A stretch of DNA of 50,299 nucleotides from Patescibacteria group bacterium (GCA_018823045.1 JAHJIX010000017.1:1-50299); one strand, 5' to 3'. Shown: positions 11,683 through 44,078, counted from the stretch's first letter. Program-made: numbers and translations. The notes: a model not told the origin generated them from the letters alone.

Positions 11683-11796
11683 CTCCCCCTACGAGGGGGA
11701 GTTAGAGGGGGTCTATCTTCGCAATTGATATTGGTATTGGTTAATCCTTAATCAACTCTCCGGCAGACCCCACCTAACCTCCCCTTATAGGGGAGG
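11683..11796 (+). mobile_element. empty REPIN/MITE-like element, copy A (DUF559-associated family)
   Basis: Left end CTCCCCCTACGAGGGGGAGTTAGAGGGGGTC, 52-bp spacer, right end GACCCCACCTAACCTCCCCTTATAGGGGAGG. Confidence 0.88.
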
Positions 11797-11867
11797 AATT
11801 AAAAAATAAGTTACCCGCCCAAGGTGGGCAAACAAGTTATAAGTTACACGTTATAAGCTACAAATAT

Positions 11868-14510
11868 ATGTTTAACCCACAACAATTTACCCACAAATCA
11901 CAAGAAGCACTTGGGCGTGCCAGTGCTATCGCTCATGAAAATGGGCAACCGCAAATTGAACCTCCACACCTCTTTTTATCTCTCCTTGAGCAAACAGATG
12001 GGGTGGTTATTTCTATTTTACAAAAAGGAAATATTAATATTGATCAGCTCACCAAAAATATTCAGCAGATGATTAATGCGCTCCCAAAACAATTTGGAAA
12101 TATGGGTGGTGGTCTTGGCCAAATTATGCTTGGACAAGCCATGATGCATATGCTAGGGCAAGCGCATGATGAATCAAAAAATATGGGAGACGACTATATT
12201 TCTGTTGAACATATTCTTTTAGCCTACACCAAACAAAAAAATCCGATCAGCGATATTTTAGCAAATCAAGGACTTGATTATAAAACAATTTTAACCGTAT
12301 TAGCAGAAGTACGAGGCAACCAAAAAGTTGACTCCCCTTCTCCAGAAAACACCTACCAAGCTCTTGAAAAATACGGGACAAACTTTACTGATCTTGCACG
12401 CAAAGAAAAACTTGACCCAGTCATCGGTCGAGATGAAGAAATTCGTCGCGTCATGCAAGTCATTACACGCCGAACAAAAAACAATCCAGTGCTTATTGGA
12501 GAACCAGGTGTAGGAAAAACGGCAATTGTCGAAGGACTCGCTCAACGTATTGTCAATGGAGATGTCCCAGAATCACTCAAAGACAAAGAAATTATAGGGC
12601 TTGATATTGGTGCACTCATTGCTGGGACAAAATTTCGTGGTGAATTTGAAGAACGTTTCAAAGCCACACTCAAAGAAGTAGAAAAATCAAAAGGCAAAGT
12701 CATTCTCTTTATTGATGAATTGCATACCCTTATGGGTGCAGGTTCAAGTGACGGCAGTGTGGACGCAAGTAATATGATTAAACCGGCCCTTGCTCGTGGA
12801 GAACTCCGAACGGTTGGTGCAACAACACTCAAAGAATACCAAAAACATATTGAAAAAGATGCTGCATTTGAACGACGCTTTCAACCCGTGATGGTTCTTG
12901 AACCAGAGCAAGACGATGCCATTGCAATATTGCGTGGTATTAAAGAAAAATATGAAGTGCATCATGGAGTGCGCATTACTGACCCGGCTATTGTTGCTGC
13001 GGTAGAGCTGTCTAGTCGCTATATTTCTGATCGATTTTTACCAGATAAAGCGATTGATCTAATTGATGAAGCAACGTCAGCCCTACGTATGGAAATTGAC
13101 TCTATGCCAGATGAACTGGATCGCTTAAAACGCCAGATGATGAAATACGAAATTGAGATTGAAGCACTCAAAAAAGAAAAAGATACTGATTCAAAAAATC
13201 GACTTGCACATATTAAAAAAGAATTAGAAAACTTACGAGAAGAAAGTACAGAGCTTGAAATTCATTGGAAAAATGAAAAAGAAATCATTACCCACATTCG
13301 TGAATCCAAAAAAGAAATCGATGAACTCAAACAAGAAGCAGAAATTACAGAAAGACAAGGAGATTTACAAAAAGTAGCAGAAATTCGCTATGACCAAATT
13401 CCACAAAAAGAAAAAAATATTCAAGAATTAGAAATAAAACTCAAAGATATTCAACAAGACCGTGGTATTTTAAAAGAAGAAGTAACTGATGAAGATATAG
13501 CGAGCGTTGTCTCAAGATGGACCGGCATTCCTGTATCAAAAATGCTTCAAAGTGAAAGTGAAAAATTAACCAAACTCGAAGAAGTACTTGCCAAACGTGT
13601 GATTGGCCAAGACGAAGCTATTGCCGCGGTGTCTCACGCCATTCGTCGCTCTCGCGCTGGAATTTCAGAAGAAAAACGCCCGATTGGTTCCTTTATGTTT
13701 ATGGGACCAACCGGAGTTGGAAAAACAGAACTTGCAAAAGCGCTCGCAGAAGTACTCTTTAACGATGAAGAAGCTATTGTACGCGTAGACATGAGTGAAT
13801 ACATGGAAAAACATTCCGTTAGTAAAATGATGGGCGCAGCACCTGGCTATGTTGGCTATGAAGAAGGCGGTCAACTCACAGAAAAAATCCGTCGCCGACC
13901 ATATTCTGTTATTTTGTTTGATGAAATAGAAAAAGCACACGGAGATGTCTTTAACGTCATGCTCCAAATTTTAGATGATGGCCAATTAACTGATGCAAAA
14001 GGACGCAAAGTCAACTTTAAAAACACCGTCATTATCATGACCAGTAACGTTGGCTCAAGCATGATCATGAACCTCAGTCGCAAAGGTGAATTTGGATTTG
14101 GAGAACAACAAACACATGGCCTGAAAGAAAATGAAGATTTGATTAAGAAAAAACTTATGGATACCCTTCAAGAACACTTTAAACCAGAATTTCTCAACCG
14201 TGTGGACGATATTATCATGTTCCACCCACTCGAAGAAAAAGAAATCCGCTCAATTATTGAATTACAATTAACACATATTGAATCACGGATTGCAGAAAAG
14301 AAAATCACGCTTGATGTACTCAAAAGTGCAAAAGATTGGCTAGCTAAAAAAGGCTATGATCCAGAATTTGGCGCCCGCCCACTCAAACGAGTCCTCCAAA
14401 GAGAACTCCTGGACCCTCTTGCGATGATGATTATCGAAGGCAGCCTTGCAGAAGGTGATCATGTGAAAGTAAGAGTCGCAAAAGATGAACTGGTGATTGA
14501 AAAGAGGTAA
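11868..14510 (+). CDS. clpB: ATP-dependent chaperone ClpB
   Basis: Clp N-domain, two Walker A motifs ([16 protein letters not shown]), coiled-coil middle domain, GARPLKR. Confidence 0.98.
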
Positions 14511-14522
14511 GATAAAAAAAAT

Positions 14523-14550
14523 AAACCACCGTATTGGTGGTTTATTTTTT
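14523..14550. terminator. bidirectional intrinsic terminator after clpB
   Basis: AAACCACC-GTATT-GGTGGTTT with A and T tracts on both sides. Confidence 0.8.
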
Positions 14551-14574
14551 TATATTTTTTCTTATTTTATATAA

Positions 14575-14637
14575 TCACCATCCAATAATACCTACAGACA
14601 CAATAATAATCCCTGTTATTATTGGGAATTTTAGCAT
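14575..14637 (-). CDS. candidate 20-aa hydrophobic small protein (MLKFPIITGIIIVSVGIIGW)
   Basis: ORF below the track cutoff; AAAGGAGG upstream (15-nt spacing to ATG) and TATAAT; one TM-length hydrophobic run. Confidence 0.4.
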   Translation of the reverse strand: MLKFPIITGIIIVSVGIIGW

Positions 14638-14719
14638 AGTAATAATATATAACCTCCTTTACTATTATAACACAAAAGCTCCTGATAATATCAAGAGCTT
14701 TATATATATTTTTTTCCTA

Positions 14720-15736
14720 CTACTCTCCCCCACAAACCGTCTCTATAATCGCTGTACATACTTCATACGGATCCATATTTGCTGCTGGGCGACGATCTTC
14801 TAAATACCCTTTCCCTTCTGCTGCAACGTGTGCTGGAACGCGGATAGATGCACCACGATCGCTAATACCATATCTAAATTCACCAATGTGACATGTTTCA
14901 TGATGACCCGTGAGTCGCTCTTCATTATGCGCGCCATAGAGTTTCATCATGTCGATATGTTTTTTGCCTAATTTTTCTATTGCAAATTGAATATAATTAA
15001 TTCCACCCTCTTCTCGCATGAGCTTTGTACTATAATTGGTATGTGCTCCCGCTCCATTCCAATCTCCTTTGACTGGTTTTGGATACAGTGTTGCATATAC
15101 TCCATATTTTTCTGCAATTCTATACAACAACCAACGACTAATCCACAATTGATCTGACACAGATAAGGCATCGAGAGTTCCTACTTGAAATTCCCATTGT
15201 GATGGCATCACTTCTGCATTAATTCCCTCAAAAGAAATCCCTGCAGCAAGGCATGCATGCATATGCTCTTCGACAATTGGTCGCCCAAATACTTCATCAG
15301 CACCAACACCACAATAATATCCACCTTGTGGTGCAGGAAAACCATTATCTGGCCATCCAAGTGGTTTGTTTCCTTTAAATAAGGTGTATTCTTGTTCAAT
15401 ACCAAATAATGATCCTTGTGATTCATAGCGTGCGGCAACAGTTCTCAGTTCAGCTCGTGTATTTGATGGGTGTGGTGAACCATCTGGAAGCAAAACCTCA
15501 CAAAGTACTAAAATATTGTTATTTCCTCTTAATGGATCTAAAATATGATAAACAGGGCGTAAAATACAATCGCTTTCTACTCCTTTTGCTTGATAGGTAC
15601 TTGACCCATCAAACGACCAATCTGGGATATCTTCTAATTGAAGAACATCATGACGAAGGACTTTTGTCTTTGAACGTAATTTCTTTGTCGGCTGATTTCC
15701 ATCAACCCAAATATACTCAGCAATAGTGTGTCCCAT
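14720..15736 (-). CDS. glnII: glutamine synthetase type II
   Basis: AEYIWVDG, WSFDGSST, GINAEVMPSQWEFQVG, DWNGAGAHTN, RLTGHHET, GYLEDRRP; ~338 aa fits GSII; start moved to 15736. Confidence 0.93.
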   Translation of the reverse strand: MGHTIAEYIWVDGNQPTKKLRSKTKVLRHDVLQLEDIPDWSFDGSSTYQAKGVESDCILRPVYHILDPLRGNNNILVLCEVLLPDGSPHPSNTRAELRTVAARYESQGSLFGIEQEYTLFKGNKPLGWPDNGFPAPQGGYYCGVGADEVFGRPIVEEHMHACLAAGISFEGINAEVMPSQWEFQVGTLDALSVSDQLWISRWLLYRIAEKYGVYATLYPKPVKGDWNGAGAHTNYSTKLMREEGGINYIQFAIEKLGKKHIDMMKLYGAHNEERLTGHHETCHIGEFRYGISDRGASIRVPAHVAAEGKGYLEDRRPAANMDPYEVCTAIIETVCGGE

Positions 15737-15881
15737 ATAAAACGAATTGAGATGTGAATAATCTTCTCTATTTGAGTATAGTAGCATAAGAAAAGCAAGT
15801 TGGCAAAGTATATCATTTGCCTACTATACACCAAACAAAACACAGCCTGTGGACGGCTGTGTTTTTTATATTTTAACATTA

Positions 15882-16226
15882 TTACACTTCAGGAAAAATC
15901 TTTTTCCCCTCTTTATCGTATAAGTGAATTGCAAGCACCGGGCAAGATTGTGCTGCCATAAGCATCATATCTTCATCATATGCATTTGGATCATCAATGT
16001 ATGCAAGATTTTTATCATCCATTTTAAATAAGCCATCAGCAACAACAACACAAGATTGCGCCCCAATACAGGCTTGGCGATCAACAACCACACGACGCAC
16101 AGGGTCGCCCTCTTTTGTTCTAATTGCCTCAGCTTTCCCTTCAGGGATATCTGCAGGAGTTGCTACCTCTGTTTGATTTTCTGCCTCTTGATTGAGCTTA
16201 TCAATATGCTCTTGTGCGTTTGACAT
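15882..16226 (-). CDS. monocluster ferredoxin, probably [3Fe-4S]
   Basis: CIGAQSC...CPVLAI with the second Cys replaced by Ala. Confidence 0.85.
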   Translation of the reverse strand: MSNAQEHIDKLNQEAENQTEVATPADIPEGKAEAIRTKEGDPVRRVVVDRQACIGAQSCVVVADGLFKMDDKNLAYIDDPNAYDEDMMLMAAQSCPVLAIHLYDKEGKKIFPEV

Positions 16227-16280
16227 ATGTTTTTCTTATAACTTATTCGCTTTTGGTAGATAAAATATTTAATGGAAGTC

Positions 16281-16395
16281 CTCCCCCTACGAGGGGGAGT
16301 TAGAGGGGGTCAATCTTTGCAATTAAGACAGGTGTCAATTAATCCTTCTTTTAGCGCTCCGTAAGACCCCACCTAACCTCCCCTTATAGGGGAGG
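16281..16395 (+). mobile_element. empty REPIN/MITE-like element, copy B
   Basis: Both 31-bp ends identical to copy A; 53-bp spacer. Confidence 0.88.
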
Positions 16396-16405
16396 AATTT
16401 TATGT

Positions 16406-16714: not shown

Positions 16715-16728
16715 ATATATAATATACA

Positions 16729-17016: not shown

Positions 17017-17032
17017 AATTGTAAAATCTGCT

Positions 17033-17131
17033 GTTCAGAGAATATCTATATTGTTTTGAACTGTCGCTACACACAGCCAGACGCGTAAAACGACGTCGGC
17101 TTATGAAAAATAATATAGATATTCTCTGAAC
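17033..17131. repeat. long stem-loop (24-bp arms, GC-rich loop) downstream of iscU
   Basis: GTTCAGAGAATATCTATATTGTTT pairs with AAATAATATAGATATTCTCTGAAC (one G-T). Confidence 0.75.
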
Positions 17132-27393: not shown

Positions 27394-28188
27394 TTACTCT
27401 GGAAGGTTATCCCAAAAAAAATCAAATACCATCTTTATCATACCATATAAAATTTTATCTTCAATGATAATTCCATTTGGATTCTCAGGATGTGCGTTGA
27501 TAATAGATACTTTATTTTCACCATAAATACCTAATTCACAATCATATGGAAATTGATCTTTTGAAATCATTTTTTTCTCAATACGATATGTTATATTTAT
27601 TTTCTTATATAAATCTTGCCAAAAGACAGATTCTTCTTCGGTTTCTGCCAAAATAACACGAGTTTTAATTGGTCGTTCATCTGCTTTTTTAAAATATCTT
27701 TCTAACACTCCATCTCTCAATTGCATTTGCAATGCTGTAATATTCCCCCACCCCATAATTTCATATTCTCCTGCTTGACTTACTTGATCATCTAAAATTT
27801 TTTCAATATTTTTCAAACCCTCAAAATATCTAATTTTTGGCTTATGAGGCAAAGAATTATATAATTCTTCTATATCAGGAAATACTTGTTTTGCTTGCTT
27901 AACTTGCCCTTTAGCAAGTTCTTCTTTCATTTCTGTAAAACGCAACAAACTTTCTGGTGGTTCAATTTGATAAAATTGTTTCTTTTCTTTTTCAATCTCA
28001 ACAATCAATCCTTGGACACTTAATTCTGTCAATATACGGTAAACAGTACTTCTACTAATATGTATTTCTTTTGCAATAGTACTTGGATAATCACCACCAG
28101 CTTCAAGCAAATAAAGATAAATTTTAGCCGCTTTATCACTTAAACCCAATTGTTCTACTTTTTTTTGTAATTGAATATCTATATTCAT
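27394..28188 (-). CDS. TrmB family transcriptional regulator (copy 1)
   Basis: N-terminal HTH (SRSTVYRILTELSVQGL), PHKPKIRYFEG linker, C-terminal ligand domain. Confidence 0.85.
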   Translation of the reverse strand: MNIDIQLQKKVEQLGLSDKAAKIYLYLLEAGGDYPSTIAKEIHISRSTVYRILTELSVQGLIVEIEKEKKQFYQIEPPESLLRFTEMKEELAKGQVKQAKQVFPDIEELYNSLPHKPKIRYFEGLKNIEKILDDQVSQAGEYEIMGWGNITALQMQLRDGVLERYFKKADERPIKTRVILAETEEESVFWQDLYKKINITYRIEKKMISKDQFPYDCELGIYGENKVSIINAHPENPNGIIIEDKILYGMIKMVFDFFWDNLPE

Positions 28189-28202
28189 ATTATTCCTTGT
28201 AA

Positions 28203-29000
28203 TTATTCCTTGTAATTATCCCAGCTAAAATTAAAAATCATTTTCATCATTTGATGAAATATCTTATCTTCAATAATAAATGCAACTGCTGTCTCTTTAT
28301 GATCTGTAACAATACATACTCTATCTGTCCCATAGATTAAAATTTGGCTCTCATATGGGAAAGAATCTTTTTTAAAATATTTCTGTTGTTGCAACTCAAA
28401 TAATTGTGGATATTTTGTTTTTCTTTGTTGTAAACGACTATATTTTTCTGATTCTTGATGAAAAGCACGAGAAGAAAGCCCTTTATCTAAATATGCTTGA
28501 TAATATGTATCTAATGCATCTTCAGGCAAAGATAATTGAAATTCTGAAATATTACTCCAACCACAAATTTCATAACTACCTTCCTGAGTATATATATCAT
28601 TATATGCAAAATGAACAATTTGGTCGGCCCCTTCAAAAAAACGCATAGTTGGTTTATGAGGTAAAGCTTCAAATAGTGCATTAATATCAGGGAAAATTTG
28701 CTCGGCTTCTTTTTTCCTTTTTTGAGCCAAATGTATTTGCATATCAGTATATGCCAACAAATTAACAGGTGGCTCTAACTGATAAAATAATTTATTTTTT
28801 TTCTTTACTTCAACAGCCAACCCTTTTACATGTAAATCTGTTAAAATTCTATACACTGTCGTTCTATTAATTTTTGTTTCTTTTGCAATAGCACTTGGGT
28901 ACGCTCCCCCACTTTGTAATAAAAAAATATATATTTGAGCGGACATGTCACTTAAGCCCAGCTTTTGAATTTTTTTTTGTAAACTTTTATCTGTTGTCAT
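28203..29000 (-). CDS. TrmB family transcriptional regulator (copy 2)
   Basis: NRTTVYRILTDL, PHKPTMRFFEG. Confidence 0.85.
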   Translation of the reverse strand: MTTDKSLQKKIQKLGLSDMSAQIYIFLLQSGGAYPSAIAKETKINRTTVYRILTDLHVKGLAVEVKKKNKLFYQLEPPVNLLAYTDMQIHLAQKRKKEAEQIFPDINALFEALPHKPTMRFFEGADQIVHFAYNDIYTQEGSYEICGWSNISEFQLSLPEDALDTYYQAYLDKGLSSRAFHQESEKYSRLQQRKTKYPQLFELQQQKYFKKDSFPYESQILIYGTDRVCIVTDHKETAVAFIIEDKIFHQMMKMIFNFSWDNYKE

Positions 29001-29001
29001 A

Positions 29002-29799
29002 TTATTCTTTATAACTTGCCCAGCTAAAGTTAAAAATCATCTTCATCATATTATGAAATATTTGATCTTCAACAATAAATGCAACAGGTACTTCTTTATG
29101 CGCATTAATGACAGCCACTCTATTACTTCCATATATCGAAATTTGACTTTGATATGGAAAATCCTTGGCCTCAAAATATTTTGTTTGTGGTACATTTTTT
29201 TCTTTTAATGGAGAATATAATGTTTTTTTAAATGGAGTATTTCCTTCTCCTCGCGGATAAAAAGCACGTAAAGTCAAATCTTTTTTATCTAAAATTTTAA
29301 TATACTTATTTAAAACTTTTACACCTCCTAATTTCAATTGCAAATCATTAATATTACTCCACCCAACAATCTCATAACTACCAGGTTGAGAGTATACGTC
29401 ATCATACACTTTTGTAATATTTTCTAATCCTTCAAAAAATCTGATCTTTGGTTTATGAGGAAGTGATTGAAATAATGCTTCAATATCTGGAAATAATTGC
29501 TCTGCTTTCCCTTTCTTCTCTTTTGCAAGAGTAATTTGCATGTCAGTATAACGAAGTAAACTTTTTGGTGGCTCTAGTTGATAAAATAATTTATTCTTTT
29601 TTTCTATCTCAACGACTAAACCTTTAATGGTTAATCTTGTTAATACACGATAAACTTTACTTCTATTTAATCCTGTTTCTTTTGCTATACGACTGGGGTA
29701 TCCACCACCATTTTCTAATAAATACACATAAATGACAGCCTCGCTTTCTTCTAAACCAAGCTCTGTTATCTTTTTTTGTAATTGCTTATCTGTTGGCAT
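29002..29799 (-). CDS. TrmB family transcriptional regulator (copy 3)
   Basis: NRSKVYRVLTRL, PHKPKIRFFEG. Confidence 0.85.
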   Translation of the reverse strand: MPTDKQLQKKITELGLEESEAVIYVYLLENGGGYPSRIAKETGLNRSKVYRVLTRLTIKGLVVEIEKKNKLFYQLEPPKSLLRYTDMQITLAKEKKGKAEQLFPDIEALFQSLPHKPKIRFFEGLENITKVYDDVYSQPGSYEIVGWSNINDLQLKLGGVKVLNKYIKILDKKDLTLRAFYPRGEGNTPFKKTLYSPLKEKNVPQTKYFEAKDFPYQSQISIYGSNRVAVINAHKEVPVAFIVEDQIFHNMMKMIFNFSWASYKE

Positions 29800-29808
29800 A
29801 AATTATAA

Positions 29809-30594
29809 TTATGAAATAGAATTCCACGATAAATCAAATAACAATTTAATCATCTGATATAGTACTTTATCTTCAATAATAATACCCATAGCAGTATGTT
29901 CATGGGCATTCATAAGAGAAACCCGATCTTCCCCGTATAATAAAATTTGACTTGTATATGGAAACTGTTCTTTTGATAAATATTTTGCTTGTTTTGGAAA
30001 ATCGGTTTTTGTTTTTTCTCTATATAATTGTGTTACTCCTTCTTCACGATTTTCATCTGAATAAATACCTCGTATACTCAAACCTTTTGTATAAATTTCT
30101 TCTAAATGCTCTTCCAATTTCTTAGAAGAAATATCTTTTTCTAAATCAACGATATTCCCTAATACCAAAATTTCATATGAACCCTCTTGATAAAAAACGT
30201 CATCAAAAATAGATATAAGATTATCGAACCCTTCAAAAAATCTCACAGTGGGTTTGTGTGGGAGTGATTTATATATGGCTTCAATATCATCAAAGATATT
30301 TATTGCTTTTTGATCACGTTCTTCAGCTAATCGCACTTGTGTTTTTGTATAGTTAAGTAATGATCTTGGGGGAGATACTTTATAATACAATTTATTTTTT
30401 CTTTTTGTTTCAATAATAAGCCCTTTAATGCTTAAATCTGTAAGCAACCGATAAACACTTGTTCTATTCATATTTAATTTACTCGCAATAGTACTTGGCG
30501 CAGCACCACCCTGCTCTAATAGATATGCATAAACAGAACTTAAGTTATCACTTAAGCCTAATTGTTTTATATGTGTATAAATATGTCTATTCAT
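29809..30594 (-). CDS. TrmB family transcriptional regulator (copy 4)
   Basis: NRTSVYRLLTDL, PHKPTVRFFEG. Confidence 0.85.
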   Translation of the reverse strand: MNRHIYTHIKQLGLSDNLSSVYAYLLEQGGAAPSTIASKLNMNRTSVYRLLTDLSIKGLIIETKRKNKLYYKVSPPRSLLNYTKTQVRLAEERDQKAINIFDDIEAIYKSLPHKPTVRFFEGFDNLISIFDDVFYQEGSYEILVLGNIVDLEKDISSKKLEEHLEEIYTKGLSIRGIYSDENREEGVTQLYREKTKTDFPKQAKYLSKEQFPYTSQILLYGEDRVSLMNAHEHTAMGIIIEDKVLYQMIKLLFDLSWNSIS

Positions 30595-30637
30595 ATAAAT
30601 GTATTTTCGCTATAAAATAACCATACCAAACAAATGA

Positions 30638-30676
30638 TTTTTTGTCCAATCTAACGAACAAAAAAGTTGTCCACAG
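30638..30676 (+). promoter_or_regulatory. operator-like semi-palindrome, copy 1
   Basis: TTTTTTGTCCAATCTAACGAACAAAAAAGTTGTCCACAG; 35/39 identical to 33832-33870. Confidence 0.6.
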
Positions 30677-30802
30677 GTATTTTTGTTTTACTTTAGGTAA
30701 ATTTGCACAACTAAAAATCCTTAAAAACATAAAGCCCATGTTTTTTTGATTATACTCAATTTATTGATCATTACAACTCAAAAAAATTATTAATTAAACA
30801 AC

Positions 30803-31426
30803 ATGACATCAATATTCCAAAAGAAATATATAATTATTATTTCTTTTATTGGAACTATCTTACTCATTTCAATCTGGCATATGTTTTTTATAAATAAACA
30901 AACACATACCATTGAACCGATTGGAATTATCGAAGAAGTCCCAGGACTTGAACTATTTACAGCAAGCCCACAAGAAGGACTTCGTGGACGATATACAGAA
31001 CATAATCAAAGCGTATACTTTGAAGCAATTCGAAGTGGCATTAGACACCCAAAAATTATTCAAGAAGCATTTTTGACTCATGAGTATAATGTTGAATATC
31101 GATTTTATACTCAAGATGGCCAAGAATTTTTTGGACCAAATATTGGTACAGCATCTCCAAATATAGAATGGATCGCATGGGCTGGTTGGTCTGATCTAAA
31201 CAAAGATGGCGTTTCAGATAACTTATCTCATCTATCTCTCAAATATTATGAAAATGAAGAAGTGTATCTTGATACCTTACACACAAATTATATGCTTGCA
31301 TATAAAGCCACACAAGCACTTCAACAAGTTCCACTTGTATCAGAAGAACTTGCATTAGAAATTAATCTCCTTCAAAGCGCACCTAAACAGATACAAGAAG
31401 AATATCGATTGTTAGAACAAAAATAG
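30803..31426 (+). CDS. hypothetical exported/membrane-anchored protein
   Basis: N-terminal TM; motifs resembling the 32692 product. Confidence 0.7.
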   Translation: MTSIFQKKYIIIISFIGTILLISIWHMFFINKQTHTIEPIGIIEEVPGLELFTASPQEGLRGRYTEHNQSVYFEAIRSGIRHPKIIQEAFLTHEYNVEYRFYTQDGQEFFGPNIGTASPNIEWIAWAGWSDLNKDGVSDNLSHLSLKYYENEEVYLDTLHTNYMLAYKATQALQQVPLVSEELALEINLLQSAPKQIQEEYRLLEQK

Positions 31427-31427
31427 T

Positions 31428-31478
31428 TGTTGCAGGTAAGAAGTGCTGAAAAATTTCAGCTCTTCCCTCTGCAATAAC
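31428..31478 (+). repeat. 51-bp structured leader repeat, copy 1
   Basis: 48/51 identical to 32613-32663; internal hairpin GAAG(T/A)GCTGA-AAAATT-T(C/T)AGCTCTTC. Confidence 0.85.
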
Positions 31479-31505
31479 TGTAGAGCGTAATCCTATTAGG
31501 AGGAT

Positions 31506-32558
31506 GTGATGAAACACACCTGCATCTTGTTCCTCAGCATGATGGCCATGTTGGCCTTCGGCTGTGGGGAAGACCTCACACAAGCTTTGGTGGATACCCC
31601 CACCCAAGAATCCCCCACGGAAGAATTTGAGCAAGAGTCATTCTCTGTCATCAAATTCCAAGAAGGAACAACATCATCTGAGGCCTTACGTCTGTTTCAG
31701 ACCAACAACAACCCCGACTTAGAAGTAACTGTTGTCCTTCCTAGCTACACATCTCATCGATATGTACGAAAGGACTCCCCAGAGAATCAACAGGCGTCTA
31801 TCCTGAATCAAGAAATTGAATTCATCAAATTCATATCAAATCAATTTGATACCGAAGATGAACTTGAGTCCGTTGTCTACAATGAACTCATGGAGACGCT
31901 TTTAGAAATTGAGCAAAACAGCCATGTCACCGTGCAATCAATCAAGATTAAAACGGCTGATTTTCAAAAGTTTGACATAATTCCATCTCTGATTCAAGAT
32001 ATTCAGATCCATGACTCCATACAAAATATTGGAGACACACTGAATACCCGTAGAGATGCAATCACCGACTTTACTGATGACAGGGCTTATGTACCAGATG
32101 GTGGCTCATCCACAATTTGGACAAGTGGTAGCCTCCAAAAATTTTGGTTTACATCATCTCAATTATCGCATTACTCTAGTTGGCGTAGAGGATTAGAGAT
32201 TGATACATTGATCATCCCTCGCAGTCGGGCTGGATGTGGGAATAATACGAGCACGAATATGCCTGTTTCCTATAAAGACACAGAAGCCTTTGACGATGGG
32301 AATGCTCGTATATGTACTGTTGGAACGAGTAGTGCCAATAGACTTCGGCCAAATAGGCTTTACTGGACCTGGCATTCCTTCTCTAGTTTCGAACAAGGCC
32401 TTAACCCAACAATTCAAGTTCTTTTCCAGCCCACAAAGAGAATGTGGATTGGTCAAGCTTGGGCTATGTTTAGTGATTCCCATATGCCTATTCAATGGTT
32501 GCTCCAATATAATTATAACGAAGCACCTGGACGCGAAGTATCTTGGAATCATAACTAA
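31506..32558 (+). CDS. putative lipoprotein
   Basis: AGGAGG SD; lipobox LAFGC followed by GED. Confidence 0.8.
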   Translation: MMKHTCILFLSMMAMLAFGCGEDLTQALVDTPTQESPTEEFEQESFSVIKFQEGTTSSEALRLFQTNNNPDLEVTVVLPSYTSHRYVRKDSPENQQASILNQEIEFIKFISNQFDTEDELESVVYNELMETLLEIEQNSHVTVQSIKIKTADFQKFDIIPSLIQDIQIHDSIQNIGDTLNTRRDAITDFTDDRAYVPDGGSSTIWTSGSLQKFWFTSSQLSHYSSWRRGLEIDTLIIPRSRAGCGNNTSTNMPVSYKDTEAFDDGNARICTVGTSSANRLRPNRLYWTWHSFSSFEQGLNPTIQVLFQPTKRMWIGQAWAMFSDSHMPIQWLLQYNYNEAPGREVSWNHN

Positions 32559-32612
32559 AGATAACTTCATCACAATAACCAATTCAACTCGGTAACCGAT
32601 AATAGGTTCCGA

Positions 32613-32663
32613 TGTTGCTGGTAAGAAGAGCTGAAAAATTTTAGCTCTTCCCTCTGCAATAAC
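32613..32663 (+). repeat. 51-bp structured leader repeat, copy 2
   Basis: Matches 31428-31478. Confidence 0.85.
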
Positions 32664-32691
32664 GCAGACACTCACCCTACTAGGGGGAAAT

Positions 32692-33720
32692 GTGAAAAAA
32701 CTGCTCTACCTCTTTAGCTTGATGGGCATACTATCCATCGGCTGCGGAGAAGAATATCTCATCCTTGATGGGATACAAGAAGAAGTCCAACAGGGCTTTG
32801 AGAACAACAACCGCTCCAACATGGAGCCACAAGATAATCCAGAGTCCAGCTACGCGCTCGACTTTGATATCAACAACGACGATAAGGTACGCGTTTACTT
32901 GACGGATAAGATGGATGGTCATGGTATCATCCTCGAAATCCTCCGCGGCCCCGATCGCCCCCTCCTCCAAGATGATGATGGAAAAGACATCATTGATCCC
33001 GAGCTCCCAGCTCAAGAGATCGATGCCCGATTCATTTCGATGTACGGCCAGACCTTCATGAGTAGTTATGGAGGACACGGTCCGGTTAACCCAAACTGGG
33101 GTGATCGAGATGATATACATACTGATATTGATGAACGTGCACGAGACTTTGAAATGGCGGTCATGATGATCGATATACTCGCAAACGAGAAGGTCAATCT
33201 TGAACTTTTTGATGAAGCAAATAACTTAATTTACAACTTCAAAAAGACCTCTAAGATCATCCATCCATCTGAACATACAAATATTCAAACGAAGAGCCTA
33301 CGGATATATCAACACCACTTCTTGATACATTATTCAGAGATTCGTTTGAACTTTCATCATTCCGCAACAGCAGACCATATTTACTATGCTAATCGTCCAT
33401 ATAACTATCACTACACAAAGAATCATGGTAGAGGCCCTTTTGAATCAGGAATGCGTCGTCGATGCTTACGAACATTTAACTTTTACATAGGCCATGCCCC
33501 ATTCTCCAGTTCTTGTGCTGATAGTAGAGACGATGGATTAGCCTGTTGTAATACTGGATATGGAAAGAGCTCTGGACATCATGTATGTAATGATGACACC
33601 CTCCTCCAAAAAGAAATAATGATACTAGAAGATCAATTAAGATATTATGATCATCATAATCAGACTTCTAGTACATGTCGAGACTGGTGGCCACGAGCCT
33701 ACGCCCCCTCCTGCAACTAA
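32692..33720 (+). CDS. putative lipoprotein with Cys/His-rich C-terminal domain
   Basis: AGGGGG SD, GTG start, lipobox LSIGC followed by GEE; seven Cys in the C-terminal ~75 aa. Confidence 0.8.
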   Translation: MKKLLYLFSLMGILSIGCGEEYLILDGIQEEVQQGFENNNRSNMEPQDNPESSYALDFDINNDDKVRVYLTDKMDGHGIILEILRGPDRPLLQDDDGKDIIDPELPAQEIDARFISMYGQTFMSSYGGHGPVNPNWGDRDDIHTDIDERARDFEMAVMMIDILANEKVNLELFDEANNLIYNFKKTSKIIHPSEHTNIQTKSLRIYQHHFLIHYSEIRLNFHHSATADHIYYANRPYNYHYTKNHGRGPFESGMRRRCLRTFNFYIGHAPFSSSCADSRDDGLACCNTGYGKSSGHHVCNDDTLLQKEIMILEDQLRYYDHHNQTSSTCRDWWPRAYAPSCN

Positions 33721-33783
33721 AAAGAAACACTTCATCACACCCCACCTAATTAACATGACTCAATGAGTTGTGTCCCACCCTTA

Positions 33784-33813
33784 ACCCTGTGCCTAGGCAT
33801 AGGGTCCTTTTTT
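33784..33813 (+). terminator. intrinsic terminator of the lipoprotein unit
   Basis: ACCCTGTGCC-TA-GGCATAGGGT followed by CCTTTTTT. Confidence 0.75.
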
Positions 33814-33831
33814 ATCTAAAATATTAATATA

Positions 33832-33870
33832 TTTTTTGTCCAATTTGACGAACAAAATAGTTTTCCACAG
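33832..33870 (+). promoter_or_regulatory. operator-like semi-palindrome, copy 2
   Basis: TTTTTTGTCCAATTTGACGAACAAAATAGTTTTCCACAG. Confidence 0.6.
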
Positions 33871-34170
33871 ATTTTTAACGCTAATTACAAGCAAAAATAC
33901 AGTATTTCAATTTTCATGTTTCACACAAAAATAAAGTACTTGCTATATTTAATTTAGATTGCTCATTACAATTTAAACGAAAGGAAGAACAGAAAACTGC
34001 CACTTTCTTTACATAATGTACATTATAACGTACATAGTTAATTTCATGTTGTGAACAACACAACAAAACAACAGTATACTCATATACTGTAAAACACATA
34101 ATAGTTTAAACATGAGGTGAAGTAATAGGCACTTCATGTTTAGATTGAATAACAAAAAAGGAAATACATC

Positions 34171-34480
34171 GTGAGAAAACTCTTCTCTATCCTGGGCATG
34201 TTTTTCATGCTGCTGGGATTAGCCCCAACACCAGTCGAGGCACAACAAACCGCCACCAACTTCATCTACCCGGTGAAAGCAACGGATGTCAACAACATCC
34301 TCGACAACATCAACGATCCTGCCGATGGGCATGGTTGGGTGATCTATACGAGCTTGGGTAGCTACTACAACAACGGCAGCGATTGCCTGACTGGCTACCA
34401 CGACGCTGATGACTACAACCGCACAGGCGCTGCCAACAACGATCTGAATGCTCCGGTATATGCGGTTGCTAACGGTACTG
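34171..34480 (+). pseudogene. truncated secreted M23 family peptidase
   Basis: Signal peptide, FIYPV, GYHDADDYN (HxxxD), APVYAVANG; the frame then runs into antisense TrmB sequence and lacks the HxH motif. Confidence 0.75.
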
Positions 34481-34699
34481 ATAAAATAATTTATTCTTTT
34501 TTTCTACTTCAACAACCAAGCCTTGTGCAACTAACTCATCAAGTATACGGTACACACTACCACGAGTAATTTTAGTTTCTTTAGAAATTCTACTTGGAAA
34601 AGTTTTATTTTGTTCTAATAAAAACAAATAAATACCCGTTGCCTTTTCTCCTAAACCCAATTTTGTTATTTTTTCTATTACTTTTGAATCAATAGCCAT
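34469..34699 (-). pseudogene. truncated TrmB family regulator (copy 5, HTH only)
   Basis: Matches copies 1-4 up to KKNKLFYQ, then stops after two codons. Confidence 0.85.
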
Positions 34700-38556: not shown

Positions 38557-38643
38557 AGCAATGATAATTAGATAAAAAAAGAGTCTCTTCCACAGAGCGA
38601 ATAAATATAGTATAATAGTAATGATTCATGAAGTCAAAAAATT

Positions 38644-40761
38644 ATGAGAGAACCGTTTGCATTATATGAATTTTTTATAGAAGGACGACGACGTGCAGAG
38701 TCACATGTTCTTCTCCATATTACTGAACAAAATCCCCATGATGAGACTAAAGGGGCTCTTTTTGTTGTGTGTGAAATTAAACATGGCACCATTGCACAAA
38801 TTGAGCATTTGCAAAAGATGATTGATGATATTGAGTCAGGATACTACGAAACAGACCAAACAAGTAAAAAACACCCTTTTGAGCAAACTCTTGAGTTTAT
38901 TAACCACAGAACACATCACATATTACAAAAAGATGCTGGTGAAGTTGATTGTTTTGTCGGAATAATTGAAGACAATACTATTTATTTTTCTATTCATGGA
39001 GAACCACGAGCACTGTTAATGTACCAAGAACAAAAATCTTGGCAAACCGTTGATCTGCTCGAAGGAAGAACCAATGATACTGATGATACGATCTTTTGCA
39101 AAGTAACAAAAGGCACTCTTGCTGATGACGATTTGTTGTTTATTGCAACACCTGAAGTAACGGAAGTATTTCCACTTGAAGAATTACAACAACTCTTTAC
39201 GAGCCATACACCTAAAAAATCTATTGAAACTATTCAAAATCATTTCGAACAAATAAAAGATGATCTTTCCTTTGGTGGATTACTTATTCACCAGCCAAAA
39301 AAGAAAAAACATCTTCATGAAAAAAAAGAATCTTTAACTATCATTCCACAACATAATACCCCACCACCTAACAGACCACAAAAAACAGAACTTCCACGTC
39401 CAGAAACAAACTACAGACCTCGACCACAAACAAGTAAAAGTACCGAACCACTATGGAATCGGATACTCATTGGTATTGGGAAAAATTTGGTTATAATTGT
39501 TATGGGCATTGCCCTTACTATAAAAAAATTCCTCTGGTGGATTGGTCGCCAATTTTTAGTATTATTTCTCATTGCAACAAACCACGGTAACCAACGACAA
39601 ACTATTATTGAAGAATATCGTCAAGGAATGAGACAAAAAAAACAATATATTGAAGAACTTTCTCTTCTCAGTAAATTGTTATTTTTAGGAACCATTGTAC
39701 TTATTTGTGTATTGAGTGGAAGTGTGATCTTTATGAATAAGAAAAAAGAACAAGAGACAGTCGTGGCATATCAAACAGAAGTCACTTCTATTATTCAAGA
39801 AAAACAACAAGAAGCTGAGGCAAGTTTACTCTATGGTAATGAATCAAAAGCACTCAGATTACTTGAAGAAATTCAATCACTTTTAGCGTCACTCCCTGTA
39901 GATAGCGAAACAATTCGTATTACAAAAGAAGTTACCGATCAAACAGAAAATATTACAAAAAAATTACAAAAAATAGAAGAAACACCGGTAACACTTGTTG
40001 AAAATATTTCTCAATATGCAAAAACCAGTCATATGGCCTACATCAATGGCCTGCTCTTTTTGTATGATAACAATGAAAAAGAACATGTCCTTTTTCATCC
40101 AGGAACACATATCGTTGAAACAAAAAAATACGATACCATTTCTTCAATGATTGATAGTTATGTACCAAAAGAAGATGACGAAATTTTCTTTTTAACTAAT
40201 GAAGATACGATTGCCTCATGGGACGAAGAAACAAAAAGCATGGAACAAAAAGATATTACCTACCCACAAGAAAAAGGATCTATTAGAGCCATGGCAACAT
40301 ATAACCGAAACTTATACACCCTTGATCCTATTCAAAATCAAATATATAAACATACACCAACTGTTACAGGATTTACCAAGGGAACTCCGTGGCTCCAATC
40401 CAATGAAGCCGATTTAACAAGTGCTGTTGATATTGCTATTGATGGACAAGTGTATGTCCTTAAGCAATCTGGAGAGTTACTTGTCTTTGAACGCGGGAAA
40501 CAAAGTAGCTTTAATTCCGCAAGCATCCAACCACCACTGGAAGAGCCACAAGAAATTTGGGCTCGCTATGAATATGACAATATCTATATTTTAGAACCAA
40601 GAAACAAACGTATTATTGAAATGACTAAACAAGGATCACTCATACGACAATATACCTCTAGCCAATGGAATAATCCTAGTTCTATGGCTGTTGACCCAGA
40701 AAAAGGTCTTATTTATGTCCTTGATGAAGGAAATCTCTATAGTATTGAAATTAAGGATTAA
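38644..40761 (+). CDS. membrane-spanning protein: PP2C-like N-terminal domain and extracellular beta-propeller-like domain
   Basis: LADDDLLFIAT..V segment resembles PP2C; central TM; NLYTLD, QVYVLK, NIYILE, LIYVLD repeats. Confidence 0.6.
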   Translation: MREPFALYEFFIEGRRRAESHVLLHITEQNPHDETKGALFVVCEIKHGTIAQIEHLQKMIDDIESGYYETDQTSKKHPFEQTLEFINHRTHHILQKDAGEVDCFVGIIEDNTIYFSIHGEPRALLMYQEQKSWQTVDLLEGRTNDTDDTIFCKVTKGTLADDDLLFIATPEVTEVFPLEELQQLFTSHTPKKSIETIQNHFEQIKDDLSFGGLLIHQPKKKKHLHEKKESLTIIPQHNTPPPNRPQKTELPRPETNYRPRPQTSKSTEPLWNRILIGIGKNLVIIVMGIALTIKKFLWWIGRQFLVLFLIATNHGNQRQTIIEEYRQGMRQKKQYIEELSLLSKLLFLGTIVLICVLSGSVIFMNKKKEQETVVAYQTEVTSIIQEKQQEAEASLLYGNESKALRLLEEIQSLLASLPVDSETIRITKEVTDQTENITKKLQKIEETPVTLVENISQYAKTSHMAYINGLLFLYDNNEKEHVLFHPGTHIVETKKYDTISSMIDSYVPKEDDEIFFLTNEDTIASWDEETKSMEQKDITYPQEKGSIRAMATYNRNLYTLDPIQNQIYKHTPTVTGFTKGTPWLQSNEADLTSAVDIAIDGQVYVLKQSGELLVFERGKQSSFNSASIQPPLEEPQEIWARYEYDNIYILEPRNKRIIEMTKQGSLIRQYTSSQWNNPSSMAVDPEKGLIYVLDEGNLYSIEIKD

Positions 40762-40795
40762 GACCCTATTTCATTGTTTTCCACATGATATGTTC

Positions 40796-40824
40796 TTGAC
40801 TTTCTTATTGATATTAGATATAAT
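40796..40824 (+). promoter_or_regulatory. tRNA promoter
   Basis: TTGACT-N17-TATAAT ending 14 nt upstream of the tRNA. Confidence 0.7.
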
Positions 40825-40838
40825 ATTATCGTTCTTAT

Positions 40839-40910
40839 GTCGCCATCGTCTAATGGTTAGGACACCAGGTTTTCATCCTGGTAATCGGGGTTCGATTCCC
40901 CGTGGCGATA
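40839..40910 (+). tRNA. trnE: tRNA-Glu (TTC), CCA not encoded
   Basis: GTCGCCA/TGGCGAT acceptor stem, CCAGG-TTTTCAT-CCTGG anticodon arm, GGGGTTCGATTCCCC T arm. Confidence 0.95.
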
Positions 40911-40955
40911 CGCGAAAAATGGTCATTCGATCATTTTTTTGTTATCATACCAATA

Positions 40956-41007
40956 TCATCCTGAGTGGATACCGACATGCAATGTACGGGAGGAATCGAA
41001 GGATCCC
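40956..41007 (+). repeat. TCATCCTGAG...CGAAGGATC palindromic repeat
   Basis: TCATCCTGAGT at 40956-40966 and CGAAGGATCCC at 40997-41007; partial copy at 43925-43945. Confidence 0.5.
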
Positions 41008-41036
41008 AATGACAAATTTTTTTTGAATCTTATACT

Positions 41037-42080
41037 ATGATTATTTTAGGAATTGAATCTTCTTGCGATGATACGAGCATTGCCCTGCTTGAAGTCAAAG
41101 ACAGTCAATTACACATGCTTGCTGAAAAAACAGCAAGCCAAATTGATATACATAAAATACATGGTGGAGTTATCCCAGAAATTGCAGGAAGAGCACACGC
41201 AGAGCATATATTACCCGTTATTGAAGAAGTACTCAAAGATCAGCCAACACCAGATGCTATTGCCGTCACAGCAGGTCCAGGATTAGTCACAGCGCTCCTT
41301 GTTGGGGTTGAAGCCGCAAAATCACTCAGCTACCTATTAAACATTCCCCTTATCCGTATTAATCATATGGAAGGGCATATCTATTCTCCCCTCCTTCCAG
41401 AACAAGGAACAGATGGTGAATTAAAAGACATTGCATTTCCTGCACTGTGTTTAACCGTCAGTGGTGGGCATAGTGCGATTACCCTTATGCACAAACATGG
41501 CGAATACGAACGCATTGGTGCCACTCGCGATGATGCTGCTGGAGAGACTTTTGATAAAATTGCAAAGATGGTAGGTTTTGAATACCCTGGTGGACCAAAA
41601 ATTTCAAAAGCAGCAAAAACAGGCAATCCAAAAGCAATTGATTTTCCTCGACCAATGATACTTAAAGATACCTGTGACTTTAGCTTTGCCGGACTCAAAA
41701 CGGCAGCCCTCTATTGGTTACGAGATAATACCTTTGAAGAAACAACTATTACAAGAGAAGATTTTTGTGCTTCTATTGAAGCAGCAATCGTTGACTCTCT
41801 CCTGATTAAAACAATGCGAGCTGCAAAAAAACACCAACCAAAAACTATTATTTTAGCTGGTGGCGTTTCGGCAAACCCAACACTTCGTACACAATTAGAA
41901 GAACGCATTGCAAAAATCCTTCCTCATACAACATTTCTTAAGCCACAAAAAGGCTATTCTATGGATAATGCGGCTATGATTGCGCTTGCTGGATATTATC
42001 ATGCAAAAGAAAAAGACTTTACTACTCCAAAAGAATTATTTGCTGATCCACAATGGTACTTGACAGACAATTCAAACTAA
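41037..42080 (+). CDS. tsaD: tRNA N6-adenosine threonylcarbamoyltransferase TsaD
   Basis: GIESSCDDT, HGGVIPEIA, NHMEGH, VSGGHS, DDAAGETFDK, DNAAMIA. Confidence 0.97.
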   Translation: MIILGIESSCDDTSIALLEVKDSQLHMLAEKTASQIDIHKIHGGVIPEIAGRAHAEHILPVIEEVLKDQPTPDAIAVTAGPGLVTALLVGVEAAKSLSYLLNIPLIRINHMEGHIYSPLLPEQGTDGELKDIAFPALCLTVSGGHSAITLMHKHGEYERIGATRDDAAGETFDKIAKMVGFEYPGGPKISKAAKTGNPKAIDFPRPMILKDTCDFSFAGLKTAALYWLRDNTFEETTITREDFCASIEAAIVDSLLIKTMRAAKKHQPKTIILAGGVSANPTLRTQLEERIAKILPHTTFLKPQKGYSMDNAAMIALAGYYHAKEKDFTTPKELFADPQWYLTDNSN

Positions 42081-42178
42081 CGTATAATCGATAAAATTGT
42101 TCGTTTACAATAACAAGGAGACCTATAAAGGGTCTTCTTTTTTAGAGCCAAAAACTGGCTCGAGGAGTTCATCCATCC

Positions 42179-42841
42179 ATGCCTAAACACAAAAACATCC
42201 AACCAAAAATAATTTTGGTTGCTGGAGCAAGTGGGTCTGGTAAATCTACAGTTATAGAAGAAATCAAACACGTATTAGGTGACCTTTGTGTTGTTATTCC
42301 ACTTGATATGTTCTACTTAGATTTTGGAGCAAAAACCCCCGAAGAGCAAAGCCAGATAAACTTTGACCATCCTAAAGCAATTGATTGGCGTTTAGTTTTT
42401 CATGTATTACTTTCTCTCAAAGCAGGTAATCCAACACTCATCCCTATCTATGACTTTGAAACTCATAGTAGAAAAACTACTGGAACCCTCGTTGAGGCTG
42501 CCCCAATCATTCTATTAGAAGGCCTTATGGCCCTATTTGATAAAGAAGTCCGTTCACTAGCTCATAGAGCTATCTTCGTTGATGCAGAACTTGATATTTG
42601 CTTACAACGACGAATTGCTCGTGATACAAAACCTGTTAACGAAGGTGGTCGTGGCAGAAGTCAAGATTCTGTCTTAAAACAATGGTTACAGGTACGTGAA
42701 ATGTACCGTCGCTTCTTTGAACCAACAAAACAGTATGCTAATATTGTCCTTCCTGAAGGAGGACATAACAAAGAAGGCATTCATATACTCCTTTGCTGGC
42801 TCAGATATGAACTAGGCTTCAACGGCCAAACAGAGGAATAA
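42179..42841 (+). CDS. udk: uridine kinase
   Basis: GASGSGKST, NFDHP, PIYDFETHSR, ILLEG, RRIARD, EPTKQYA. Confidence 0.92.
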   Translation: MPKHKNIQPKIILVAGASGSGKSTVIEEIKHVLGDLCVVIPLDMFYLDFGAKTPEEQSQINFDHPKAIDWRLVFHVLLSLKAGNPTLIPIYDFETHSRKTTGTLVEAAPIILLEGLMALFDKEVRSLAHRAIFVDAELDICLQRRIARDTKPVNEGGRGRSQDSVLKQWLQVREMYRRFFEPTKQYANIVLPEGGHNKEGIHILLCWLRYELGFNGQTEE

Positions 42842-42878
42842 TACAAAACAAAACACATCCCGCCCGTAACACTCACCG

Positions 42879-42922
42879 CGGCACTGACTTGTAAAGCACA
42901 CTCGCTTTGCATATCGGTGTCG
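42879..42922 (+). repeat. 19-bp imperfect hairpin between convergent udk and ATP-grasp genes
   Basis: CGGCACTGACTTGTAAAGC-ACACTC-GCTTTGCATATCGGTGTCG with three G-T pairs and two mismatches. Confidence 0.55.
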
Positions 42923-42938
42923 CCTTTTAAATTACAGA

Positions 42939-43838
42939 CTATTTTACAAGCATATCAGCAATCCGCTCGATAAATGTTTGAAACACTTCTCCACGTGCTG
43001 GTGAAAATAATCCGACACGAGAGTTAAGCTCCATAATAAATGGTTTGCCTGCTAAAAAGACAATATCTACCCCAACATAATATGTTGTATCAAATACTTT
43101 TTTAATTTCTTCAATAATTGGATACACCGACATTGGTATTTTATCTGTTTCAATGACTCGTAACTCTCCACCCTGTGCTACATTTGCACGATACTCACCT
43201 TCTTGTGGCACACGATAAAATGAATAAATAATTTCTCCATTAATAAGCACAATTCGTAAATCATGCATACCGTCATATACTCCAGGAATACCTTCACTTG
43301 TATCAATAAACTCTTGCACAATAACCGGAAATTCATACGACTGTGCAAGCACATGCTCAGTACTTCCAATATGCACGTCATGTCCACCTTCACCCCAAAT
43401 AGCTTTTACTACTTTTATATCACCATCAAACTCAGATACGGCAGCCACTAATTCTTCTTGATTTTCTACTTTTATTGTTTTTGGGCAATATTGTTTAAAT
43501 AGTTCATAGGTTTTCCATTTATCGACGCAAACACTATTTACAAAATCATTATTTAAAATAGTCATACTTCCATCAGAAGGAAACAACCGTGCTCCTTTAT
43601 CAAATAATGTATCAATTACTACTTCTCCTGTCTCAACGACTTCACCATCTTTAAATTGCCAACTATTTGAAAAAACTCCATTTCCTTTATAACTATCATG
43701 CTGACGAACAATAAAAAATTTAGCACCACGTGCTTCTACCTGTTTTGCGAGTTCTTGATATGACTCTAAATACTCCTCTTTATTCAATGGATAATCAAGT
43801 TTTCCTGCCAAATCAAAAAATACAGCAATTTTTTTCAT
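42939..43838 (-). CDS. ATP-grasp domain protein (RimK-like)
   Basis: DKWKTY, VVKAIWGEGG, IVQEFID, DLRIV, YRANVAQGG, FIMELNS. Confidence 0.85.
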   Translation of the reverse strand: MKKIAVFFDLAGKLDYPLNKEEYLESYQELAKQVEARGAKFFIVRQHDSYKGNGVFSNSWQFKDGEVVETGEVVIDTLFDKGARLFPSDGSMTILNNDFVNSVCVDKWKTYELFKQYCPKTIKVENQEELVAAVSEFDGDIKVVKAIWGEGGHDVHIGSTEHVLAQSYEFPVIVQEFIDTSEGIPGVYDGMHDLRIVLINGEIIYSFYRVPQEGEYRANVAQGGELRVIETDKIPMSVYPIIEEIKKVFDTTYYVGVDIVFLAGKPFIMELNSRVGLFSPARGEVFQTFIERIADMLVK

Positions 43839-43963
43839 AATACAAAAATTAGCTATGTATATAACATATAGCCCTATCCTAACACATTAATCAAAACATG
43901 AGAAGCCCCTACACTCCAATATACTGTCATCCTGAGTGACTGAAGTAAATAACAATTAAAGTC

Positions 43964-44078
43964 CCTCCCCTATAAGGGGAGGTTAGGTGGGGTCTTTCGG
44001 AGGAATTGAAGAAGGTTTATTATTAAAAAATCTTAATCGCAAATATGGACCCCCTCTAACTCCCCCTCGTAGGGGGAG
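43964..44078 (-). mobile_element. empty REPIN/MITE-like element, copy C
   Basis: Reverse complement has both 31-bp ends identical to copies A and B; 53-bp spacer. Confidence 0.88.

Follow-up and report, generated by a model that had tools for sequence, protein, structure and literature searches.

A family of small hairpin-ended DNA elements was identified in a stretch of 50,299 nucleotides (hereafter the window) from a Patescibacteria group bacterium (GCA_018823045.1 JAHJIX010000017.1:1-50299). Three copies (A, B and C) are empty, 114-115 bp long and bounded by 31-bp imperfect inverted ends, and a fourth (D) carries a gene of the DUF559 family between nearly the same ends (Table 1). Judged from the sequence comparisons given below, A, B and C may be non-autonomous derivatives of a DUF559-encoding, hairpin-ended selfish element, comparable to MITEs (miniature inverted-repeat transposable elements) or to REPINs, the hairpin-forming doublets of repetitive extragenic palindromic (REP) sequences, an interpretation whose chances we consider roughly even.

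Table 1. Positions of the four elements and of the enclosed gene, counted from the first nucleotide of the window
Feature	Coordinates	Strand	Details
Empty element A	11683-11796	+	Left end 11683-11713, spacer 11714-11765 (52 nt), right end 11766-11796
Empty element B	16281-16395	+	Left end 16281-16311, spacer 16312-16364 (53 nt), right end 16365-16395
Empty element C	43964-44078	-	Left end 44048-44078, spacer 43995-44047 (53 nt), right end 43964-43994
Loaded element D, 442 bp	48921-49362	-	Left end 49332-49362 (loop ATG, tail ends in T), right end 48921-48951 (loop CAT)
DUF559 gene, 128 aa	48940-49326	-	Pfam PF04480, E 7.6e-32

The comparison of the empty copies supported the conclusion that the ends are under far stronger constraint than everything between them. 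The left end, CTCCCCCTACGAGGGGGAGTTAGAGGGGGTC, and the right end, GACCCCACCTAACCTCCCCTTATAGGGGAGG, were exact in A, B and C, giving 62/62 identical positions in each pair, whereas the spacers agreed at 35/52 (A-B), 31/52 (A-C) and 34/53 (B-C) positions, or 60-67%, and the difference between ends and spacers was significant for every pair (Fisher p 3e-7 to 4e-9). Counted by alignment columns, 0/62 varied in the ends and 26/53 in the spacers (p 2e-11). No match to either 31-mer arose by chance in dinucleotide shuffles. Copy D carried two mismatches in the left end and one in the right end (59/62 identical to A-C). These values reproduced those of the initial annotation of this sequence, which had reported fully identical ends, spacers of 52, 53 and 53 nt with about 64% identity (34/53 for B-C), and the ATG and CAT loops of the loaded copy. 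The spacer blocks TAAnCCTT and CTCCG, which it had singled out, were present in all three empty copies, while a third block, TTGCnATT, was exact in B and C and carried one mismatch in A. Its description of the spacers as fast-diverging was not borne out, since unconstrained spacers in a population of copies undergoing birth and death would give the same picture.

Each end was made up of one module, in which a C-run/G-run hairpin is followed by a TTAG linker and by a G-rich tail that copies the 3' arm of the hairpin and terminates in GGTC. The left end contained the perfect 8-bp hairpin CTCCCCCT-ACG-AGGGGGAG, then TTAG, then AGGGGGTC; the right end, read as its reverse complement, contained CCTCCCCT-ATA-AGGGGAGG, then TTAG, then GTGGGGTC. 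The two ends carry this module in opposite orientations, as imperfect copies whose tails face inward, although they differ in the loop (ACG versus TAT) and in the stem (C5/G5 versus C4/G4), and the element is polar, as had been noted before. All eight GC-rich 8-bp hairpins of the window belonged to A-D, and neither solo nor decayed copies were found there. On either strand, the minimum free energy structure of A, B and C was a single long hairpin with z-scores of -3.9 to -5.2, and the consensus structure of the three comprised 35 pairs. Three spacer pairs stayed paired through changes on both sides, a weak signal with three sequences. No tag tetranucleotide (GTAG or CGTC) was present outside the stem; GTAG occurred in the left hairpin only across the loop and stem of the bottom strand, where other copies have ATAG or TTAG. 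Two other classes of repeat were considered and rejected. The copies are dispersed and not arrayed as in CRISPR, and the match to the CRISPR-DR31 model reached 13.9 bits against a threshold of 35. The order of the core motifs (GTTAG...CTAAC on either strand) is the reverse of that in integron attC sites (RYYYAAC...GTTRRRY), and no integrase was found in the window.

The gene of copy D is closely fitted to its ends. The tail of the left end places GAGGGGG 7 nt before the ATG, which is the position of a ribosome-binding site, and translation stops at a TAA within the right end (GAC CCC ACC TAA), so that the ends also act as translation signals. The catalytic-type residues D56, E67, D69 and H73 of the D protein were conserved, and D, ExD and H were invariant in the alignment of homologues. 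A match of the protein to PDB 3hrl was found at E 2.5e-16, and its AlphaFold2 model (pLDDT 86) retrieved 3hrl by Foldseek at E 1.5e-8, together with the catalytic domain of the homing endonuclease I-Bth0305I (3r3p; E 1e-4, probability 1.00) and then Vsr (1vsr; E 0.05). Both the sequence and the predicted model suggested that the D protein is a Vsr-like PD-(D/E)XK nuclease folded like a homing endonuclease. Vsr, DUF559 and 3r3p had been grouped in one PD-(D/E)XK clade by Steczkiewicz et al. (PMC3424549). A phmmer search for DUF559 (E <= 0.001) yielded 23,977 clusters at 50% identity. In many homologues the C-terminus was encoded by the right end, for example as DPT or TPPNLPL.

The spacers of the empty copies resembled the interior of the loaded copy. 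In an end-anchored comparison, the spacers and the D interior agreed over their first 45 nt at 22/45 (A), 18/45 (B) and 24/45 (C) positions, against a background of 12.6 +/- 3 (p ~0.003, ~0.05 and ~0.001, respectively, with a range of 0.001-0.006 for A and C), and spacer C also matched the last 12 nt of the D interior at 8/12. The matched stretch of D encodes an N-terminus (MxxxGRYxNxSS) that is conserved among homologues, which indicated that the spacers descend from the gene by deletion and that the gene was not inserted into them. An internal-deletion origin had been proposed earlier from the likeness of the element terminus to the end of the DUF559 gene; the D gene does end in CTTCGAAGGACCCC, and the in-register match added moderate support to the view that the spacers are probably remnants of a loaded element. 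Their common length fits a single ancestral deletion of ~327 nt that then spread to at least three loci, and three copies that may share one deletion do not by themselves bear out the earlier claim that spacer length is constrained. A real length preference was hinted at by two doublets of unrelated sequence in another genome, which have 54-nt spacers, and by the compensatory pairs.

Bracketing of DUF559 genes by such modules was also found outside the window. In other Patescibacteria metagenome-assembled genomes (MAGs), DUF559 genes 56-60% identical in protein were bracketed likewise (loci L117, L123/L124 and L129-L138). Their interiors span 378-385 nt; the ATG comes shortly after the left tail, and translation stops within the right end or immediately ahead of it. 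The interiors were 62-68% identical, whereas the ends in the window, L123 and L117 agreed at 56-59 of 62 positions (90-95%) and at 53-55 of 56 outside the loops. Between genomes, the end differences fell mainly in the hairpin loops, the pattern expected when stem and tail are constrained. In L117 an extra hairpin was nested in the left hairpin, and in L129-L138 the loop ACC was common to both hairpins. A second DUF559 subfamily (P0037, P0029 and P0042) displayed the same architecture with other sequences: its ends read CCTCCTCC/GGAGGAGG then CAGGAGGAGGTCT, and CCCTTCCC/GGGAAGGG then ACAGGGAAGGGTCT, the right ends start with AGACCTC, and the tail again copies the 3' arm. One genome, GCA_964344965.1, held both subfamilies, each with its own hairpin type, and the principle was kept in more distant examples, among them L125, L144 and L146, the last with 42-nt inverted ends. 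The earlier suggestion that the ends are under protein-recognition constraint gained support, as the contrast with the interior held both within the window and between genomes and the ends co-varied with the DUF559 subfamily, as expected of a protein-recognition site. We regard this co-variation as the strongest argument that ends and nuclease evolve as one unit.

The flanks of small PF05635, PDDEXK_3 and GIY-YIG genes in the same MAGs differed from the DUF559 module, and the module is therefore not a general flank of small genes in those genomes. In L130 (3020-3500), a gene for a PF05635 protein (23S rRNA intervening-sequence protein) was located between inverted repeats of its own, GACCACCTGATCACCTGACCAC / GTGGTAAGGTGGTTAAGTGGT, which are unlike the DUF559 ends. 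In L117 (60-520, minus strand), a 92-aa GIY-YIG gene had on either side a tRNA-like sequence, the two being nearly identical, which looks like an insertion within duplicated tRNA genes or between them.

All four copies in the window occupy untranslated or intercistronic positions near gene ends or starts, with mixed orientation to transcription. Element A has the same direction as clpB and is situated downstream of the near-consensus clpB promoter with its inverted-repeat operator and ahead of the start codon of that gene. Element B lies 10 nt 3' of the stop of a 2Fe-2S thioredoxin-like gene and upstream of a ferredoxin gene, antisense to both. Element C follows the stop of a phosphoribosyltransferase/deaminase gene (44092-45243) by 14 nt and precedes a RimK-like gene (42939-43838), in the sense direction, and element D lies 62 nt upstream of dnaE (45358-48858).

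Copies appear to have been gained or lost at some of these sites. The ClpB protein assigned the window to Candidatus Magasanikbacteria of the candidate phyla radiation (CPR), and the closest relative found, L139 (GCA_018650085.1), encodes the best non-self ClpB, 82% identical. No element of this family was present in L139 at the sites of A and B, nor was any module of the A-D type detected in its 22 kb. After the 2Fe-2S gene, the more distant genome L123 had a loaded copy, 3 nt past the stop and in the opposite orientation to B, the window an empty copy and L139 none, although these genomes are distant and the orientations differ; the L123 copy is probably an insertion independent of B. A decayed doublet was found in L203 (16431-16525; GCA_964345045.1, ClpB 72% identical to that of the window), with one module that equals the right end of D at 31/31 positions and a partner that lacks half of the hairpin.

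In the wecG-clpB spacer of L139 the promoter and operator were kept, and a different palindromic element was found at the place of A. This element, ACGTCATTGCGAG...GAAGCAATCCCAG...CTGGGATTGC...CTCGCAATGACGT, occupies L139 9855-9980 (orthologous to window 11669-11867), between the promoter/operator and the clpB start, and the clpB leader appears to be a preferred site of palindromic insertion. The window promoter (TTGACA-16-TATAGT) and the inverted repeat after it, TTATCACTCT...AGAGTGATAA (11609-11668), both kept in L139, probably form a heat-shock operator.

Some cassettes were found inside host genes. In L144 (IMGVR_UViG_2894185313_000007), a DUF559 cassette of ~177 codons (613-1143) was in frame inside the open reading frame (ORF) of valyl-tRNA synthetase (ValRS), which also reads in frame through two solo modules at 1777-1815 and 1867-1896. 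UvrC, HsdS, HsdR and methyltransferase proteins with internal DUF559 domains, bordered by hairpin-encoded peptides, were found among the 150 best family representatives. Some proteins contained two or three tandem DUF559 domains (P0186, P0189 and P0187); P0187 (1214 aa) had two DUF559 insertions and repeated hairpin-encoded peptides in an apparent restriction-modification enzyme. In L201 (8966-11658; GCA_964344965.1), the DUF559 gene P0042 and then a variant doublet with a 54-nt spacer lay between a PPDK_N ORF and a PEP-utilizers ORF, an arrangement reminiscent of a gene interrupted by nuclease insertion. Another hairpin module was seen within the PPDK_N ORF at L201 9309-9331.

To account for these observations, A-D are proposed to be one family of small selfish DNA elements, of which copy D would be the autonomous form. 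A-C would keep both modules and, from the interior, ~45 nt at the 5' side and ~8-12 nt at the 3' side, with ~327 nt of the gene lost. The modules would be cis-acting propagation sites recognised by the cognate DUF559 nuclease, which would bind or cut them; copying might be started by the nuclease and finished by host repair, in a homing-like manner, or might proceed via a hairpin intermediate, and the empty copies would be mobilised in trans. Under continual birth and loss of copies, descendants would come only from intact modules, so that the ends stay invariant and the unconstrained spacers drift. Each surviving copy would be young, while the common ancestry of the lineages would be old; given some tens of copies, coalescence time would exceed copy age by a factor close to the copy number, which would be enough for 0 changes in 186 end positions beside 33-40% spacer divergence.

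Several points weigh against this proposal. A PD-(D/E)XK nuclease cannot rejoin DNA, and spread to new, non-homologous sites would therefore need host functions; to our knowledge, no DUF559 protein has been found to act on these ends. Three end positions separate D from A-C, so D need not be the current partner of the empty copies. No target-site duplication was present at A-D, where the flanks ATT/AAT, GTC/AAT, TTT/GAC and ATT/AAC hold no consistent direct repeat. The geometry varies: the tails point outward in L144, and in L125 and L201 the gene lies beside the doublet and not inside it. Just three empty copies were available, and unanchored local alignment of the spacers to four loaded interiors was not significant (p >= 0.05). 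In viral contigs, 21 of the 23 best DUF559 loci had no such hairpins. Finally, the proposal does not account for the solo modules of many phyla, which may be footprints, independent repeats or targets. A 20-mer of the end module, GAGGGGGAGTTAGAGGGGGT, occurred in more than 116 stretches, mostly as solo or tandem modules and often nested in other palindromes, from Bacteroidales, several CPR phyla, Caldilineaceae, Lentimicrobiaceae, cyanobacteria, Gemmatales, Alcanivorax and Desulfurobacterium, and a DUF559 homologue was encoded in none of these more than 116 stretches of 8 kb. The 20-mer had no match in viral contigs, and a metagenome scan with an over-specific pattern retrieved one solo module, L122.

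It is conceivable, though unlikely, and is the main alternative, that the doublets are an independent REP/REPIN-like family spread by a different enzyme or by a host process, whose centres are invaded by a DUF559 homing endonuclease, with the empty copies as uninvaded targets. The wide occurrence of solo and tandem modules without a nearby DUF559 gene, the varying position of the gene relative to the modules and the homing-endonuclease fold of the D protein are all in accordance with such invasion, and co-variation of nuclease and ends would also be expected if the specificity of an endonuclease tracks its target. Against it stand the spacers, which resemble the first 45 nt of the D interior in register over the conserved N-terminus and so look gene-derived, and the ribosome-binding site and stop codon built into the ends. 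Furthermore, no transposase, including Y1 and REP-associated tyrosine transposases (RAYTs), was found among the 36 window ORFs scanned in Pfam.

A role as structured signals that the host keeps in RNA or DNA, for instance as hairpins that stabilise mRNA, act in attenuation or resemble terminators, with ends under purifying selection at each locus, is improbable. The untranslated or intercistronic position of all four copies, their very stable folds and the absence of decayed copies from the window fit such a role, and two outward-facing end hairpins passed a loose terminator scan (5 T in 8). On the inward side TTAGAGG follows the hairpins, and clear intrinsic terminators in the region, such as that at 14515-14551, have another form. 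Host signals would also be hard to reconcile with the absence of the elements from the orthologous sites A and B of the nearest relative, with their occurrence in both orientations to transcription, with the same ends bracketing a nuclease gene and with related cassettes inside coding sequences. No Rfam family matched the elements at the gathering threshold, where the only window match was a tRNA-Glu; at E <= 10 they matched only generic long-hairpin miRNA models, far below threshold. No promoter was found inside the spacers of A or B by consensus scan.

Homogenisation by gene conversion may have added to the end identity, since genome-specific end variants were common to the copies of one genome, such as the same T in both right ends of L117, and A, B and C are mutually identical yet unlike D. 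As the sole cause, acting among dispersed copies with no selection on the ends, it is very improbable, because conversion tracts would need to stop at the same 31-bp boundary on both sides of every copy, and because it would explain neither the conservation of the ends between genomes and phyla nor the clustering of their differences in the loops, which points to constraint on stem and tail.

The selfish element proposed here shares features with several known systems. In REPINs the inverted ends are invariant, while the spacer is less conserved and limited in its length and its capacity to form a hairpin (PMC3116915). The elements described here likewise consist of two inverted hairpin units and a spacer, with invariant ends and a variable spacer that seems restricted in length and folding and bears compensatory changes; singlets, doublets and clusters all occur, and the associated gene is flanked by repeats. 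They differ in that the enclosed gene encodes a DUF559 PD-(D/E)XK nuclease and not a Y1/HUH RAYT, that a single doublet encloses the gene and its ends supply the ribosome-binding site and stop, that the GTAG/CGTC tag at the hairpin foot is missing, and that the end motif is common to several phyla, whereas REPs are lineage-specific. Like MITEs (e.g. Correia/NEMIS), the elements are short and intergenic, with terminal inverted repeats and a longer gene-carrying relative with the same ends; unlike MITEs, they show no target-site duplication, the only gene of the parent is a PD-(D/E)XK nuclease and no known transposase, and each terminal repeat is a hairpin plus tail.

Free-standing Vsr-like (EDxHD) homing endonucleases have been described with 'fractured genes' and 5' hairpins over ribosome-binding sites (Dassa et al. 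2009; PMC2677866). The D protein resembles them (I-Bth0305I, PDB 3r3p; PMC2677866) in nuclease fold, in being encoded by a small free-standing gene within or between host genes and in the 5' hairpin overlapping the ribosome-binding site. In contrast to it, they carry extra DNA-binding domains, target one host gene and sit in phage genes, introns or split inteins, and neither inverted hairpin ends nor gene-less derivatives at several unrelated loci are known for them. Palindromic repeats that spread in AT-rich genomes are also represented by the Rickettsia palindromic elements and the yeast mitochondrial GC clusters, which can lie in frame within genes, as the DUF559 cases in ValRS, UvrC and HsdS do; we know of no sequence relationship to either group, nor of a DUF559 partner for them. 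No published description of such a DUF559 element was found in the literature searched, which is not proof of novelty.

DUF559 is a very large family without a known role, and these findings suggest one. The fixed, co-evolving hairpin ends and the gene-less derivatives lead to the testable hypothesis that DUF559 is a selfish-element nuclease with the ends as its substrate. If true, the system would be REPIN/MITE-like but with a partner other than a RAYT or a DDE transposase, and it would account for the odd G/P-rich termini of many annotated DUF559 proteins and for the DUF559 domains inside ValRS, UvrC and restriction-modification subunits. A wider version is tentative and, in our view, rather doubtful: DUF559 could be the nuclease of pan-bacterial hairpin-ended mobile cassettes that rely on a Vsr-like nuclease in place of a transposase, move within and between phyla, enter essential genes in frame and yield REPIN-like doublets and solo modules in Bacteroidales, CPR, Chloroflexota, cyanobacteria and others. 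For the annotation of small CPR genomes, the elements represent a class of intergenic repeats that alter untranslated regions such as the clpB leader.

Other repeats were observed in the window. Four tandem paralogous genes for TrmB-like regulators of 261-265 aa, with 63-76% DNA identity between copies, occupy 27394-30594, and a fifth, 121-nt fragment of this repeat lies 4 kb away at 34477-34597. Between them, a segment of higher G+C content (30637-33876) is delimited by 46-nt direct repeats (30637-30682 and 33831-33876; 87% identical) and contains two putative lipoprotein genes with no Pfam match that are alike only in their signal peptides. A 51-nt palindromic repeat, 94% identical between copies, was present at 31428-31478 and 32613-32663.

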